A stretch of DNA of 51,314 bases from assembly GCA_001788925.1 (NCBI GenBank), contig MFXS01000041.1, positions 1 to 51,314 of the forward strand, written 5' to 3'. The notes below the pieces were generated by a model. It saw only the letters and a program-made list of their open reading frames with translations, searched no databases and had not been told where the DNA came from. Origin of the DNA: Candidatus Peribacteria bacterium RIFCSPHIGHO2_01_FULL_55_13 (GTDB lineage: Bacteria; Patescibacteriota; Gracilibacteria; Peribacterales; Peribacteraceae). Of the stretch, positions 15,826 to 20,939 are shown in pieces (the stretch's first letter is position 1; each line of letters begins with the position of its first letter). A program made the translations under genes and the position numbers.

Positions 15826-16266
15826 TTATTTCTGAAGCGGCTGTCGTGTTTGCCAGTGAAACTTCCAATGCGGCAACGGAAAATCGGACTCCGCATGGTC
15901 CTTGCCATCGCCGATGCGAGAAAGCTGTTCCGACTCCGCAGTGTTTTCCCCCCAACCAGAATACTGATGTTCCACGACATGGCAGTGACGTGCCTCATCA
16001 AACCGTGTGCCTACAATGCAATTGCCTGTAATGGGATGGTAGAGTAGACCAAAATGTCCCCGATCAATCTGGTCCGAAGTCCACCGACGCACATGCTCCG
16101 CACTTTGCACTTGGTTCGGTAGTAATGTCTCCGTGGGCTCGCGGATTGCAAGCGTGAGATTCGGTACTGCATTGGACACCGGAGAAGCATCCGGCGATGA
16201 TGCTGGGACAGTAATCTGTTCCGGAACGAGTATATAGCCGTCAGATGGAGAATCATGAAGAAGCAT
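15826..16266 (-). CDS. Hypothetical protein, paralogue 1 of a local family
   Basis: WTSDQIDRGHFGLLYHPITG...GWGE...LSRIGDG...PHW; start uncertain. Confidence 0.68.
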   Translation of the reverse strand: MLLHDSPSDGYILVPEQITVPASSPDASPVSNAVPNLTLAIREPTETLLPNQVQSAEHVRRWTSDQIDRGHFGLLYHPITGNCIVGTRFDEARHCHVVEHQYSGWGENTAESEQLSRIGDGKDHAESDFPLPHWKFHWQTRQPLQK

Positions 16267-16570
16267 GATGTAACCGCATCTTCCTTTTACTCACTCCAAG
16301 CTTCTTCAGGAAATACTCAAATCCCCCGCTCCCGTACTGCAGCATTCTCGATCCCCGGGTAATTTTACTGATGCTCACTCCCAGATCCTGCGCGATGTCG
16401 CGCTGCGGCTCCCCCGCATGAAGTTTCTGAATGAGTTGCCACCGCTCCGAAAGGCTCGCCAATTCCTGGGGCGTCAGAAGGTCCTGCAGAAGCATCTCAG
16501 CTTCCTTGGGAGTGTCGACAACCGCAAAGAGGCGGTAGAGCTCCTGCTGATGGGGATCGGACGTGCGCAT
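16253..16570 (-). CDS. TrpR/YerC-YecD family HTH regulator
   Basis: LLQDLLTPQEL..LSERW...PQRDIAQDLGVSISKITRGS. Extended -10 TGgTATACT lies 8 nt before ATG 16570. Confidence 0.85.
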   Translation of the reverse strand: MRTSDPHQQELYRLFAVVDTPKEAEMLLQDLLTPQELASLSERWQLIQKLHAGEPQRDIAQDLGVSISKITRGSRMLQYGSGGFEYFLKKLGVSKRKMRLHHASS

Positions 16571-16600
16571 CGCGTACCAGTATACCACTACGACGGTACA

Positions 16601-16640
16601 ACCCAACAAACTCACCAAACCCACAAAACCCAATAAACCT
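16601..16640. repeat. 9-nt tandem repeat (ACCCAACAA-like)
   Basis: Same unit family as the FmdB tail at about 11165-11233. Confidence 0.65.
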
Positions 16641-16908
16641 ACTTCTTGAGTTTATTCTTCTCCAGCGTCTCCTGATACTCATCCGGCTTGTTCATCCGGA
16701 GGTAATTCAGAAGCGTGCGGCGCTTTGCCACTTTGCCAAGGAGTCCGCGGCGAGCGGAGTGATCTTTCTTGTGTTCCTGAAGATGCTCCGTGAGCTTCCC
16801 AATCTCCTTACTGAGAATCGCAACCTGCACTGGAGGAGATCCAGTGTCTTTTGCATGTGTGCGGTGCTTGGTAATGAGACGTTTCTTGTCTGTGCGCTTG
16901 AGAGTCAT
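16639..16908 (-). CDS. rpsO: 30S ribosomal protein S15
   Basis: [12 protein letters not shown]...[21 protein letters not shown]; 89 aa from ATG 16908. Confidence 0.97.
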
Positions 16909-16944
16909 GGGGCAGCGGGGATTAGGTAAAAAACGTGCGGAAAG

Positions 16945-16997
16945 TTCCACGCAGCTCCACCCGAGGCGATGTCCGCACCCAGGAGAGCTACGGGCCT
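16945..16997 (-). promoter_or_regulatory. Structured rpsO leader, possible S15 autoregulatory element
   Basis: CGTAGCTC pairs with GAGCTGCG around an inner GC-rich hairpin; located in the rpsO 5' UTR. Confidence 0.4.
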
Positions 16998-17066
16998 ATT
17001 GTAATCGGAAATCGTCCTGCAGCAAGGTATATACAGAATAAAAATGAAACTGAGGCAAGGGATGCC

Positions 17067-17084
17067 GGTGTACAGACGTACACC
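17067..17084. promoter_or_regulatory. Perfect palindrome GGTGTAC-N4-GTACACC, candidate LexA box of rmuC
   Basis: 16/18 identical to the palindrome in the lexA promoter. Confidence 0.65.
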
Positions 17085-17124
17085 CCTCGCGTACGCTCGG
17101 GACAAGCCCTTAGTATCCCTCTCG

Positions 17125-18258
17125 ATGGATCCCCTTTCTCTCATCATTGGCCTCGTCATCGGACTTATCGCCGGAGTCGCGGCGAGCAAGTTTCTCCTGA
17201 AAAACAACATGAAGGATGTGGAGGCCATGGCCGAGAGTCTTTCCTCGCAGGTCGTGAGCAAGCAGACGGAGAAGATTCTGCAGCTTGCTGAGACCAAACT
17301 CTCCGGAAAGAAGGAGCTGATTGACGGGACGCTCAGGCACATGAAAGACGATCTCAATAAAGTAGAACGTCTGATTCAGGATCTGGGCGACAAGAATACG
17401 AAGGTCGATGCGCGTCTGGAAAGCGCGGCAAAAGTGATCCGCGAACTGACGGATACCACGGGCAGCCTGAAAAACGCCCTCAGCAGCAACAGCAACCGTG
17501 GCCAATGGGGCGAGCGGATGGCCGAGGACGTGCTGCGGCTCTCGGGCCTCATCGAAGGCGTGAACTACGTGAAGCAGACGAAGCTTGCTGCGGGATCGCG
17601 CCCCGATTTCACCTTCATGCTCCCCAAAAACCTCAAACTCAACATGGATGTGAAGTTCCCATTCAATAATTATCAGGTCTTCGTGGAAGCAACGACGGAA
17701 GCCGAGCGCGAGAAAGCCAAGAAAGAGTTCCTCGCGGATGTGAAGCGCCGTATCAAGGAAGTGCAGACCCGCGACTACATCAATCCGGAGGATCAGACCG
17801 TGGACTACGTGCTCCTCTTTGTCCCGAACGAACAGATTTACACGTTCATCAACGAGATCGACCCGGAGATTCTGGACCACGCCATGCGCGGAAAGACGAT
17901 CCTCTGCTCTCCGATGACCCTCTACGCCATCCTCGCCGTCATCCGGCAGTCCATCGATAGCTTCTCCGTGGAGATCAAATCCAAAGAAATGCTGACGCTC
18001 TTCAGCGGCTTCAAGCAGCAATGGGAAAAGTTCAAAGATCAGATGATTACGGTGCAATCACGCTTCGACCAGGTGCACAAAGGCTACGAAGAACTCACGG
18101 GTACACGCGTGAACATGCTCGACCGGAAATTGACGAAGATTGAGGAGCTCAGAACTGAACAGAGCCTGCCGATTGAGGGAGCGGACGAAGTCTTTGAGAA
18201 AGTAAGTCGAAAGAAGTTGACAGAGATTTCTTCCTCGTTAGACTCCCGACACAAATGA
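17125..18258 (+). CDS. rmuC: DNA recombination protein RmuC
   Basis: N-terminal TM anchor, coiled coil, RGQWGE, RPD..LP....MDVKFP, DYVLLFVPNE, SPMTL. Confidence 0.93.
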   Translation: MDPLSLIIGLVIGLIAGVAASKFLLKNNMKDVEAMAESLSSQVVSKQTEKILQLAETKLSGKKELIDGTLRHMKDDLNKVERLIQDLGDKNTKVDARLESAAKVIRELTDTTGSLKNALSSNSNRGQWGERMAEDVLRLSGLIEGVNYVKQTKLAAGSRPDFTFMLPKNLKLNMDVKFPFNNYQVFVEATTEAEREKAKKEFLADVKRRIKEVQTRDYINPEDQTVDYVLLFVPNEQIYTFINEIDPEILDHAMRGKTILCSPMTLYAILAVIRQSIDSFSVEIKSKEMLTLFSGFKQQWEKFKDQMITVQSRFDQVHKGYEELTGTRVNMLDRKLTKIEELRTEQSLPIEGADEVFEKVSRKKLTEISSSLDSRHK

Positions 18259-18305
18259 CCTTGTTCGCATCCATCGTCAGCCTCGTCGTCCTTACCCGCA
18301 GCTAG
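18255..18305 (+). CDS. Putative Ile/Val/Leu-rich leader peptide MTLFASIVSLVVLTRS
   Basis: 7 of 16 codons are branched-chain residues; preceded by TTGACA-16-TAGACT (18217-18244) and followed by attenuator helices. Confidence 0.6.
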   Translation: MTLFASIVSLVVLTRS

Positions 18306-18359
18306 CGAGGCCTCTGAACCGTACTCTTCAGCCCTCGCACAAGCGGGGGTTTTTGTTTT
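18280..18359 (+). promoter_or_regulatory. Transcription attenuator (1:2, 2:3 and 3:4 helices)
   Basis: GCCTCG/CGAGGC, GCGAGG/CCTCGC, and terminator GCCCTCGC-acaa-GCGGGGGT plus T-run. Confidence 0.65.
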
Positions 18360-18373
18360 CTTCCCAAGATTCT

Positions 18374-18613
18374 ATGGCACCTAATGGTTTCTCACCCCGA
18401 CCCGAAGACGAACCACGACGAATTCATCCTCTGGAAATTCCGACGCGCGAACCAGATGAAACCAATGGTCTCTATGTATGGAACGAAGGATCGAGAATCA
18501 TCGCACAACTTCCAGATCGGGTGAACATAGCAGCCGCAGCGTATTGTTATGATGCGAATGGCATAGAAAAAACAACAAGGGAGCTGCGATTATATTTGGA
18601 AGAATTATTGTAA
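18374..18613 (+). CDS. Hypothetical protein (79 aa)
   Basis: ORF directly downstream of the attenuator; no recognisable family. Confidence 0.55.
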   Translation: MAPNGFSPRPEDEPRRIHPLEIPTREPDETNGLYVWNEGSRIIAQLPDRVNIAAAAYCYDANGIEKTTRELRLYLEELL

Positions 18614-18665
18614 TGCAGAGAAGAATCTCTCTGCCAAGTGATGGCGTATACGTTACGATAACCAC

Positions 18666-20939
18666 GTGACTACTGACCCCATCCTCTCCCCTCTCAACGA
18701 AGCCCAGCGTGAAGCGGTTCTTCAGACGGAAGGACCTTCGTTTATTCTTGCCGGAGCGGGTTCGGGGAAAACACGGGCCCTCACGCACCGCATTGCGTTT
18801 CTCATCAGCAAAGGCGTGGAGCCCTGGCAGATTCTTGCGGTGACGTTCACCAACAAAGCGGCCAATGAGATGAAAGAAAGAGTCAGAAATCTGCTTCAGA
18901 TAACAGCACCGGAGGAATTCGGAATGCGGAATGCGGAATTCGGAATGAGTGGGGGTGCGAAATTACCGACCATGGGAACCTTCCACAGCGTCTGCGCGAG
19001 GATACTGCGCCGCGATATCGAGCATCTGGGCCGCGACCGAAGCTTTGTGATCTACGACGGCGATGATCAGGAGAAGCTGGTGAAAGAAATCCTCAAAGAA
19101 ATGAAGGTCGACGAGTCCGAACTCAAGGCGCGCGCGGCACTGAGCTATATCGGACGGTTCAAGTCCGAAGCAGTAAGCCCTGCGGAGGCGAAGCTCCAGG
19201 CAACAAGTGCCAAGATGCAACTCGTGATCAATGCCTATGCGCACTACGAAAAAGCATTGCGGACCAATAACGCTCTCGACTTCGACGACCTCTTGCTCGA
19301 AACCGTCCGCCTGTTCCATGAAGCCCCAAAGGTTCTTGAGCGTTACCAGAAAACGTGGCGATATCTTCTGATCGACGAGTATCAGGACACGAACCACGCG
19401 CAGTATCTCTTCGTGACGATGCTCGCCAAGGGGCACGGCAACCTTTGTGTGATCGGCGACCCCGATCAGTCCATCTACGCCTTCCGCGGCGCGGACATCC
19501 GCAACATCCTGGAGTTTAAAAAGGATTACCCCGCTGCGGTGCAGCACACACTGGACCGCAACTACCGCTCCACCCAGATGATTCTGACTGCGGCGGACGC
19601 CGTGATCGAGGCAAATCCGAGCAGGCCCGAAAAGAAAATGTGGACGGACCGCACCGAAGGGCCGAAGGTAATCGTCAACGAAGTACACGACGAGCGCGCG
19701 GAGGCCGATGACGCCGTACGAACGGCACTCAAACACCGAGGAGAAGGCATGCGCCTCAACGAGCAGGTGATCCTCTATCGCACCAACGCACAGTCGCGCC
19801 TCTTTGAAGAAGCGTGCATGCGCTCCGGCATCCCCTACCGCATCATCGGCGGGACGAAGTTCTACCTGAGGCGCGAAATCAAAGACGTGCTCGCCTATCT
19901 GCATGTGATTCTGAATCCCGGCGACTCGCTATCGCTGCTCAGGGTCATCAATGTCCCCAGTCGCAAGATTGGCGGGACGACGCTCGAACATTTGCAGGCT
20001 TTCTGCCGCGACCAGTCGATCATTTTGTGGGAAGCGCTGCAGCGGGCAAACGAGATCCCCGCGTTGCCGGAGGCGACCGCTGCGCGTTTGCAGAAATTCG
20101 CGGATCTGATTGTGCAGGCCAAGCTCAAGGCCGAACGCATACCGGTGACAGATCTCACACGCTGGCTGCTCGATACGATCGGAATGGAAAAATGGCTACG
20201 CGACGACACGGATGAAGGCGAAGACCGCTGGAGCAACATCGAAGAATTGCTCTCTGTCATGCGGAAATATGATCAGCTCGACCCGCAGACGTCGCTTCTG
20301 AGTTTCCTGGAGGAAGCGAGCCTGGTTTCGGAAGTGGATAAACTCAACGATACGAAAGACGACGCGCTGACATTGATGACCCTCCACCTTTGTAAAGGAC
20401 TCGAGTTCGAAGCGGTGACGATCGCCGGCTGCGAGGAGGGCATCTTCCCGCACAGCTCCTCCAGCTTTGATCCGGAGCAGCTCGAAGAGGAGCGGCGCAT
20501 CATGTACGTGGGAATGACGCGGGCGAAAACACATCTGCGGCTGCTGCTTACCCGAAGCCGCATGCTCTGGGGCGAGACCCGGTCAAATGCGGGAAGCCGC
20601 TTCCTGGATGATCTCCCCGAAAGCGTGACCGAACGCCGCAGCGACGACATCTTAAGCGCCTTCGCCTGGTCTTCGCGCACAATGGCGGAGAATGAACCGC
20701 GGCGCACCCGTCTGGAACCCTTCCGCCAGAACGAGGTGCATGTGGAATTCAATCAGGATCTTTCCTTCGCGGCCGAAGATGAAAACCAGGAAACGCTCGA
20801 AATCGGCGCGCGCGTCTCCCATTCCGTTTTCGGCGAAGGAACCGTCATCGCGCTGCGTGGCGACATCGCCACCGTCCGGTTTGATTCGGGAAAAGAGAAG
20901 ACGCTGGCGTTGAGTATTGCGCCGTTGAAGAGGTTGTAA
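18666..20939 (+). CDS. pcrA: ATP-dependent DNA helicase UvrD/PcrA
   Basis: AGAGSGKT, DEYQD, GDPDQSIYAFRGA, NYRST, EEERRIMYVGMTRA; C-terminal Tudor-like domain. Confidence 0.93.
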   Translation: MTTDPILSPLNEAQREAVLQTEGPSFILAGAGSGKTRALTHRIAFLISKGVEPWQILAVTFTNKAANEMKERVRNLLQITAPEEFGMRNAEFGMSGGAKLPTMGTFHSVCARILRRDIEHLGRDRSFVIYDGDDQEKLVKEILKEMKVDESELKARAALSYIGRFKSEAVSPAEAKLQATSAKMQLVINAYAHYEKALRTNNALDFDDLLLETVRLFHEAPKVLERYQKTWRYLLIDEYQDTNHAQYLFVTMLAKGHGNLCVIGDPDQSIYAFRGADIRNILEFKKDYPAAVQHTLDRNYRSTQMILTAADAVIEANPSRPEKKMWTDRTEGPKVIVNEVHDERAEADDAVRTALKHRGEGMRLNEQVILYRTNAQSRLFEEACMRSGIPYRIIGGTKFYLRREIKDVLAYLHVILNPGDSLSLLRVINVPSRKIGGTTLEHLQAFCRDQSIILWEALQRANEIPALPEATAARLQKFADLIVQAKLKAERIPVTDLTRWLLDTIGMEKWLRDDTDEGEDRWSNIEELLSVMRKYDQLDPQTSLLSFLEEASLVSEVDKLNDTKDDALTLMTLHLCKGLEFEAVTIAGCEEGIFPHSSSSFDPEQLEEERRIMYVGMTRAKTHLRLLLTRSRMLWGETRSNAGSRFLDDLPESVTERRSDDILSAFAWSSRTMAENEPRRTRLEPFRQNEVHVEFNQDLSFAAEDENQETLEIGARVSHSVFGEGTVIALRGDIATVRFDSGKEKTLALSIAPLKRL

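Follow-up and report, generated by a model that had tools for sequence, protein, structure and literature searches.

Results

A leader ORF and alternative RNA helices in front of orf79

The DNA analysed here, the window, is a contig of 51,314 nt from Candidatus Peribacteria bacterium RIFCSPHIGHO2_01_FULL_55_13 (MFXS01000041.1), part of a genome of 1.17 Mb that is 97.7% complete (G000). On its forward strand, the interval between rmuC (17044–18258; Pfam RmuC, E = 3.6e-62) and pcrA holds orf79 (18374–18613), a gene for a protein of 79 amino acids, preceded by a leader (18217–18373) that is very probably a cis-acting, translation-coupled transcription attenuator. The leader begins within the 3′ end of rmuC, which contains both of its promoter hexamers, TTGACA (18217–18222) and, after a 16-nt spacer, TAGACT (18239–18244). 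Ten nucleotides past the −10 hexamer lies the ATG of a 16-codon leader open reading frame (upstream ORF, uORF), MTLFASIVSLVVLTRS, which ends with TAG (18255–18305, stop codon at 18303–18305) and whose start codon overlaps the rmuC stop codon (ATGA).

The uORF runs into a set of RNA segments with alternative partners. Region 1 (GCCUCGU, 18280–18286) lies within the Ser-Leu-Val codons of the uORF, and region 2 (GCGAGGCC, 18305–18312) starts on the final base of the stop codon. The core of region 2, GCGAGG (18305–18310), can pair either upstream with region 1 or downstream with CCUCGC (18333–18338) in region 3. Region 3 (CCCUCGC, 18332–18338) is both the 3′ arm of this antiterminator and the 5′ arm of a predicted intrinsic terminator, which is completed by region 4 (GCGGGGG, 18343–18349) and the run TTTTTGTTTT (region 4 and run, 18343–18359; T-run, 18350–18359). 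The terminator hairpin CCCUCGC-ACAA-GCGGGGG (18332–18349; −12.1 kcal/mol) was also detected by the terminator scan. An inner hairpin (CUGAA/UUCAG, 18314–18331), with invariant stems and a variable loop across the four leaders of the genus, lengthens the antiterminator and can form in either state. The terminator is separated from orf79 by a 14-nt pyrimidine-rich spacer without a −10-like hexamer (18360–18373), and pyrimidines make up 79% of the bases between T-run and ATG. The initial annotation had described the promoter, uORF, T-run and mutually exclusive helices 1:2, 2:3 and 3:4, and each of them was located as it stated.

RNAalifold, run on three homologues, gives helices 1:2 and 3:4 as the consensus, and the minimum free energy (MFE) fold of the window sequence is an extended 2:3 hairpin (z = −2.26; 3 of 200 shuffles fold equally well). 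The 2:3 duplex has a predicted energy of −15.6 kcal/mol, a value reached by 1 of 300 shuffles of the region 2 window and likewise by 1 of 300 windows drawn at random from the genome. A search of 1.1 kb against Rfam returned four chance-level matches to unrelated families (E 3.5–8.5) and no leader family, and four related loci had no match at the gathering score.

A promoter scan found 1 promoter-like site in 5 kb, the one in front of the uORF, as compared to 1.5 expected from shuffles. Because this count does not exceed the shuffles, the promoter call is based on conservation: the −35 motif stands at equal spacing in 22 of the 24 leaders described below, and the four leaders of the genus share the arrangement TTGAC(A/G), 16 nt, TA(G/C)ACT, 10 nt, ATG. 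In the other three, the −10 hexamer is TACACT and the seventh base past it is an A, from which we infer that transcription starts at the A at ~18251, with a 5′ untranslated region of ~4 nt. The rmuC genes of relatives end in KKLTEVS; in the window this stop codon is lost (TCG TGA to TCG TTA, 18233–18258) and rmuC extends 7 codons beyond the ancestral TGA to the ATGA overlap, so that the leader −10 hexamer now lies within the rmuC coding sequence.

A uORF with this little upstream sequence and no Shine-Dalgarno (SD) motif is normal in G000, since many starts in this genome are of the leaderless type. SD-like motifs are not enriched before the start codons of G000 (80 of 629 long ORFs, as compared to a 15% background), and −10-like TA...T hexamers peak beginning at −12 (48 of 486 well-bounded ORFs) and are raised at −13 to −18, a pile-up 6–12 nt ahead of start codons. 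Many mRNAs of G000 would accordingly have their 5′ end on the start codon or directly beside it, and leaderless mRNAs seem to be the rule in the lineage.

Conservation of the leader in 12 genera

We scanned 200 genomes of the family with a loose pattern (CGTCGTC, 42–70 nt, GCGGG, 0–2 nt, TTTTT). Thirty-four genomes matched, and the pattern in reverse, used as a control, produced 19 hits spread over 15 genomes. On inspection, true leaders were recognised in 22 of the 34, and the other 12 are chance matches. Together with the leaders of G006 and of a metagenome locus, L039, this gives 24 loci in 12 genera and 23 of the 200 family genomes, a lower bound because the pattern requires a GTC run and one type of terminator. 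The pattern also occurred in 5 of 135 genomes from other families of the class, none of which showed, by eye, the design in which the stop codon adjoins region 2 and region 2 faces region 3. A first pattern scan of metagenomes yielded six loci (2 real, 4 high-GC chance hits), and a strict scan of the whole of G000 for uORF-antiterminator-terminator units yielded four candidates, among which only the unit in the window was convincing.

The uORF frame is kept in all 24 loci. Typical leader peptides of the family are MQQHHVVLSLVLVVVPLG, MHRNLVVVALLLAVLPG, MLLNLVTVVVVVVPQG and MKRSVVVSVLLTVAP. The promoter is present in 22 of the 24 (TTGAC, 16–18 nt, −10 hexamer, 8–10 nt, start codon) and unclear in G098 and G020. 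Within the genus, the leader DNA is found in two of six other species, G005 (MISRLNLVGLVVLTRS) and G006 (MTLLATIVSPVVVLTRI), and on the metagenome contig L039 (MHLNLAIVSLVVVLTRS); a strain variant on contigs from another study changes Val8 of the leader peptide to Ile. The conservation of the uORF, its Val/Leu richness, the antiterminator abutting the stop codon and the terminator, with covarying helices, in loci from a dozen genera supports the attenuator reading proposed at the outset, and goes against the possibility that a non-conserved uORF merely precedes a hairpin serving rmuC.

Covariation of the helices and their response to ribosome position

Counted from the first stop-codon base, region 2 starts at −1 to +3 nt in 23 of the 24 loci and at +8 in G020. 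The mutually exclusive helices 2:3 and 3:4, sharing region 3 and followed by a U-run, are present in 23 of 24 loci, and the predicted energies are −13.0 to −19.4 kcal/mol for the 2:3 duplex in 23 of 24 and −9.1 to −12.9 kcal/mol for the terminator hairpins. The exception is G177, where region 2 starts at 0 and the 2:3 duplex reaches merely −4.8 kcal/mol. Pairing to region 3 as good as that of the leader was found in at most 3 of 300 random genome windows for 19 of the 24 leaders, and in at most 3 of 300 shuffles for 15 of the 24.

Regions 2, 3 and 4 change together. Where region 3 varies among CCUCGC, CUCGCGC, CCGCGCC, ACCCCGCUA and AGCCCUCG, regions 2 and 4 change alongside it, giving the region 2/3/4 types GCGAGG/CCUCGC/GCGGGGG, GCGCGAG/CUCGCGC with CCUCGC/GCGGGG, GGCGCGG/CCGCGCC with CCCGC/GCGGG, UAGCGGGGU/ACCCCGCUA/UAGCGGG and AGCCCUCG/CGAGGGUU. 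This covariation was judged from the helices of each sequence rather than from a column-wise count, because a MAFFT alignment of the 24 leaders misaligns region 2 in several rows.

To relate the helices to translation we folded the RNA 3′ of a ribosome placed at each codon, with the leading edge 12 nt past the first A-site base, in an equilibrium model. For the window, the predicted probability of the terminator is 0.79–0.88 with the A site on codons 1–5, 0.00–0.17 on codons 6–12 (S I V S L V V), 0.60 on codon 13 and 1.00 at every later position, stop codon included. The Val and Leu codons of the window thus fall within the A-site interval that opens the antiterminator. Twenty of the 24 leaders have a run of A-site positions at which the probability of the terminator is below 0.5, and all 24 reach at least 0.9 at the stop codon. 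The leaders of G006, G162 and G211 are open from the first codon, which indicates that they have no effective 1:2 helix.

Signs of coding and RNA-level constraint on the leader ORF

Val, Leu and Ile make up 62% of the last 11 uORF codons, as compared to 22.7% of codons genome-wide; in the window, codons 7–13 read I V S L V V L. Variable positions of the peptide change mostly among V, I and L, and the core codons have T as the second base in 83–100%, with G, C or A as the first base yielding V, L or I. Within the genus, uORF lengths differ by whole codons and the final Ser is encoded by AGC, AGT or TCC. A reading of the uORF as a coding sequence is supported by the fixed distance between ATG and −10 hexamer, the whole-codon indels, the second-base T and the synonymous Ser codons.

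The Val codons of the leaders are GTC in 95 of 99 cases and never GTG, although the genome as a whole uses GTC for 35% and GTG for 36% of its Val codons. The genome encodes tRNA-Val(GAC), and the exclusive use of GTC may mean that this isoacceptor is the one read. The segment CUCGU in the Leu-Val codons is also the one that pairs with region 2; constraints at both the coding and the RNA level are to be expected where regulatory codons sit in region 1.

One alternative is that the leader peptide is itself the product, a hydrophobic micropeptide acting for example on membranes or as a type I toxin. The peptides have 15–26 residues around a hydrophobic core, in many cases with a basic N-terminus, which would suit such a role, but most have only 15–18 residues, too short to span a membrane, and residues outside the Val/Leu run are free to vary. 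As the second type of leader described below follows the same RNA design and encodes a hydrophilic peptide, we regard a functional micropeptide as very improbable.

The small ORFs appear to depend on read-through

In 22 of the 24 loci, 16–49 nt separate the fifth T of the terminator run from the small ORF behind it, and the spacer from T-run to ATG is 76–95% pyrimidine in 22 of 24. A TA...T hexamer 11–19 nt ahead of the small-ORF ATG occurs in only 2 of the 24. Because the spacer lacks a usable −10-like hexamer in the remaining 22, the small ORFs would depend on read-through from the leader promoter. In L076 and L078 (from G179 and G181) the interval between T-run and small ORF holds a second, tandem copy of the terminator with an extra GC-rich hairpin in its loop, which stretches the spacer to ~120 nt.

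The flanking of ~105 nt by a promoter and a terminator would also suit a stand-alone small RNA of ~100 nt, possibly acting in trans like rnTrpL, with the ORF incidental or secondary. The structured 3′ half of the leader is more strongly conserved within the genus than the 5′ half of the uORF, and attenuator RNAs with functions in trans are on record in the literature available to us. Against a small RNA of this kind, the distance between −10 hexamer and ATG is fixed at 8–10 nt, 23 of the 24 loci have region 2 fused to the stop codon, the indels within the genus are of whole codons with the hydrophobic composition retained, the small ORFs in 22 of 24 loci have no promoter of their own and need read-through, and no Rfam family matches. 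We therefore hold an independent small RNA to be quite unlikely.

The unit is an optional insert at the rmuC-pcrA junction

The closest species, G002, whose RmuC is 96% identical, carries neither the leader nor orf79 but an unrelated spacer of 430 nt. In G008 rmuC is joined straight to pcrA, and in a relative represented in run X10 (flanks ~89–91% identical) 39 other bases stand between the two genes (junction at window positions 18215/18674), with no leader-orf79 unit in either. The leader-orf79 unit is thus an optional insert, and the rmuC-pcrA junction is a variable hotspot. G001 and G003 carry still other inserts at this junction. The G002 spacer includes a hairpin of ~140 nt (L010:1290–1470, reverse strand; MFE −82.4 kcal/mol, z = −5.3, no Rfam match) that could be either a structured RNA of a kind not yet known or a palindromic element. 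Just upstream of rmuC in the window, on the opposite strand, are a gene for a small DNA-binding protein of the Trp repressor family (YerC/YecD-like) and rpsO, at 16253–16633 and 16639–16950.

These arrangements bear on two further alternatives, that the hairpin is a mere terminator of rmuC accompanied by a chance ORF, or that the leader is left over from an ilv/leu operon since lost; the relic of a biosynthetic operon was one of two possibilities offered by the initial annotation. The terminator hairpin does lie just 74 nt past the rmuC stop codon, the promoter scan alone is not above chance, and known ilv leaders are similar as far as the sources at hand describe them. However, within the fetched DNA rmuC lies upstream in only 9 of the 24 loci, yet all keep the uORF and the switch, and the related genomes that join rmuC to pcrA show that rmuC does not need the unit. 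The unit is moreover maintained with compensatory changes.

A biosynthetic past also finds no counterpart in the genomes. Family searches, with controls positive in 13–14 of 14 reference genomes, found none of IlvD, KARI, Aminotran_4 (class-IV aminotransferase) and Iso_dh (isopropylmalate-type dehydrogenase) in G000, and KARI (IlvC) was detected in only 1 of the 200 family genomes, G058. This genome measures 1.8 Mb with 3% contamination, and its KARI may be contamination or a rare acquisition. Judged from gene content, the family is without branched-chain amino acid synthesis, which argues that the leader is not the relic of an ilv operon; it is instead maintained, always before small unknown proteins. 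Both the chance terminator and the operon relic are, in our estimate, the least credible of the explanations.

Diverse small proteins behind the leaders

The ORFs behind the leaders encode highly diverse proteins of 68–226 aa. Orf79 is not the orphan that it was at first taken for: an exhaustive search of 1.84 billion proteins found a homologue, P0002 (79 aa, 36% identity, E = 5.8e-4), and a two-sequence profile of the pair found relatives in three further genera, all of them preceded by a Val/Leu-rich uORF with an antiterminator and a terminator of their own. Family A thus comprises proteins of G000, G057, G162 and G187 and P0002, that is four detectable relatives of orf79, three with a leader of their own. 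Family D occurs in four genomes and family E in five, the small proteins of G006 and L039 form one family (69% identity), and about eight are singletons. Profile comparison by hhalign found no relation among families A, D and E, and by BLASTP orf79 resembled none of the small proteins encoded in G005, G006 and L039. No Pfam family matched any of 18 small proteins (orf79 and 17 others), PADLOC gave no hit for 17 or for orf79 in particular, and a word-indexed search of 5.8 billion proteins with orf79 gave no match. We set aside P0001, a 1398-aa Cys-rich repeat protein matching in 8 weak stretches, as a relative of orf79 since its score sums over repeats, and treated as chance the RHS-repeat clusters of the ESM Atlas (recognition 2039, which is low; 113 shared features).

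AlphaFold2 models of family A (predicted local distance difference test, pLDDT, 85.2; predicted template modelling score, pTM, 0.72) and family E (pLDDT 88.4, pTM 0.79) are alike, each predicted as an antiparallel beta-meander followed by one C-terminal helix. Foldseek found no match at E ≤ 0.001 for the family A model and none for that of family E. The best VIA Z scores, 4.8 for family A and 5.8 (DcrB) and 5.7 (PliI) for family E, are all too low for a fold to be assigned.

The gene pcrA, encoding a UvrD-type helicase, is downstream on the same strand in 20 of the 24 loci. In the window, it was recognised by its Pfam hits and has a −10-like hexamer, TACGAT, 6 nt upstream of a GTG start at 18666 (18654–18668, forward strand); in relatives pcrA is likewise preceded by a TACCAT-like hexamer, 6 nt and GTG. 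As a terminator scan of 18352–18716 found no terminator-like site, read-through may also add to pcrA transcripts. Of the two, the small ORF would be the main target, since pcrA keeps its leaderless-type −10 hexamer and in three relatives within the genus a convergent gene lies between the small ORF and pcrA.

A second leader type and a possible broader signal

Nine loci contain a second unit between the first small ORF and pcrA, in tandem with the Val/Leu leader (L049:1875–2003 in G187; L072, L076, L078, L079, L081, L083, L085 and L086). It consists of a promoter and an 18-codon uORF (MSHSSAYTMKQVLNTPKR, MHRPAAMPAPKYFNTKNR or MHRFVAMIAKNNSDTTKR) that is not Val/Leu-rich, a TAG stop codon fused to CGGG(U/C)G, which pairs with the terminator 5′ arm CACCCCGC, then the terminator, a pyrimidine-rich spacer and another small ORF. 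In the folding model, this leader is open by default and closes only as the ribosome nears the stop codon.

The same hardware could sense translation in general, with the antiterminator opened by inhibitors, by damaged or cleaved tRNAs, by a shortage of ribosomes or by phage take-over, and with the Val/Leu richness a by-product of region 1 or the mark of an arrest-prone peptide as in leaders of the erm and cat type. In leaders of erm, cat, ABC-F and bmrCD genes, a short hydrophobic uORF is combined with alternative hairpins, and a stall opens downstream expression; these leaders precede resistance genes and need a drug. Mainly because the second leader has the same design with a peptide that is not Val/Leu-rich, we keep this explanation as a serious rival, one that is unlikely but has a real claim. 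That the genes behind the leaders are hypervariable and unrelated to amino-acid metabolism speaks for it, and the near-exclusive use of GTC and CTC fits a constraint at the nucleotide level. On the other side, the Val/Leu richness keeps a fixed distance from the stop codon in 12 genera while the nucleotides of the switch change, substitutions in the peptide remain among V, I and L, and no resistance-type gene stands behind the leaders: neither Pfam nor PADLOC found a resistance determinant among the small proteins. The near-leaderless analogue with a Val run in Corynebacterium glutamicum is, moreover, valine-specific in the account available to us.

Discussion

The reading that we favour, and consider probable, is that 18217–18373 is a leader-peptide attenuator gating orf79 with the supply of charged Val and Leu tRNAs as its signal. 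Transcription would start ~4 nt before the ATG of the Val/Leu/Ile-rich leader ORF, which would be translated independently of an SD sequence. A ribosome that reaches the stop codon would cover region 2, allow the 3:4 terminator to form and so end the transcript at the T-run. If the ribosome stalled with its A site on codons 6–12, region 1 would be covered and region 2 left free to pair with region 3, and RNA polymerase would read into the promoterless orf79; with no ribosome, helices 1:2 and 3:4 would form and transcription would stop. The cause of stalling would most likely be a shortage of charged tRNA-Val(GAC) and tRNA-Leu. Because these bacteria cannot make Val and Leu, the device would report the external or host supply of amino acids, and the leading reading of orf79 is a small protein induced by starvation.

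Leader-peptide attenuation is textbook knowledge for the biosynthetic operons of free-living bacteria. In the enterobacterial ilv, leu, trp, his and thr attenuators, the regulatory codons lie in region 1, helices 1:2, 2:3 and 3:4 exclude one another, region 2 is masked once the ribosome stands at the stop codon and a U-run terminator precedes the first gene, an architecture that the window leader shares. The enterobacterial leaders have SD-led uORFs and control biosynthetic operons, whereas the window leader is near-leaderless and its target is not biosynthetic. In the full-text library that we searched, no literature joining the candidate phyla radiation (CPR), Patescibacteria or Peregrinibacteria with leader-peptide attenuation was found.

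The closest described system is the attenuator of ilvBNC in C. glutamicum (Morbach et al. 2000, quoted in PMC11857589), known to us from the quoted portions. Its 15-aa leader peptide IlvL, MTIIRLVVVTARRLP, starts one nucleotide from the transcription start with no ribosome binding site, and a change of VVV to AAA abolishes valine control (PMC11857589). Like IlvL, the leaders described here have a Val run with Ile and Leu, are near-leaderless and lack a ribosome binding site, and the three-hairpin switch ends in an intrinsic terminator, which in C. glutamicum yields a short terminated transcript. The targets differ, acetohydroxy-acid synthase and isomeroreductase in the account of C. glutamicum and small proteins in a family without the pathway here; the leader is ~100 nt as compared to the 292 nt given for ilvBNC, and no sequence similarity was found to the leader as quoted there. 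Another likeness, as far as the available text goes, is with the leaderless poly-cysteine short ORFs of mycobacteria, which act as cysteine-responsive attenuators (bioRxiv 10.1101/834739): each is a first-cistron short ORF enriched in one kind of codon that tunes downstream genes by amino-acid supply, although there the amino acid is another one and the target operons are those of cysteine metabolism.

Several observations weigh against the Val/Leu attenuator or narrow it. The downstream genes that were scanned have no Pfam family, and control of branched-chain genes was thus not found. Helix 1:2, which is clear in the window and in two of the three genus relatives, is weak or absent in G006, G162 and G211, unclear in the g93-type leaders and generally weak outside the genus. 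In the equilibrium model, G174, G179, G183 and G187 stay in the terminator state at every A-site position; co-transcriptional folding would favour helix 2:3, because it is made first. The MFE fold of the window pairs CCCG (18294–18297) with the G-run just 5′ of the T-run, and this nominally antiterminated fold might for that reason retain some terminator activity. The GTC bias could reflect a constraint at the RNA level or repeat slippage rather than the sensing of amino acids, and the second leader type speaks for a design that may respond to translation at large. None of the listed public runs containing the DNA of this uncultured organism is on record as RNA. Leaders of actinobacterial ilvB genes with Ile/Val/Leu runs overlapping terminators have been catalogued, and it is a caution that mutating the candidate regulatory codons in a similar ilvB leader of Streptomyces coelicolor had no effect, according to the part of that study available to us (PMC1262725).

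A more speculative proposal, which we rate as improbable, is that the space before pcrA is a hypervariable array of cassettes in which unrelated small beta-sheet-plus-helix proteins each stand under a separate translation-sensing attenuator, of the Val/Leu or the second type, a conflict or symbiosis module induced by attack on translation or by starvation. Triggers could then include a phage, a competitor or the host depleting or cleaving tRNA-Val(GAC) or tRNA-Leu, and the small proteins could be inhibitors or immunity-like factors, possibly directed against a DNA helicase or nuclease encoded by a neighbour.

What sets the Val/Leu-rich, near-leaderless attenuator apart is its occurrence in 12 genera that cannot make these amino acids, in front of fast-changing small proteins. 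If the favoured reading is right, ultra-small symbionts that lack biosynthetic feedback would use a compact SD-independent sensor of ~100 nt to read amino-acid supply or translation stress, and the finding would document a lineage that runs largely on leaderless mRNAs. It would also provide a handle on about a dozen families of unknown small proteins, whose inducing condition would then be known.

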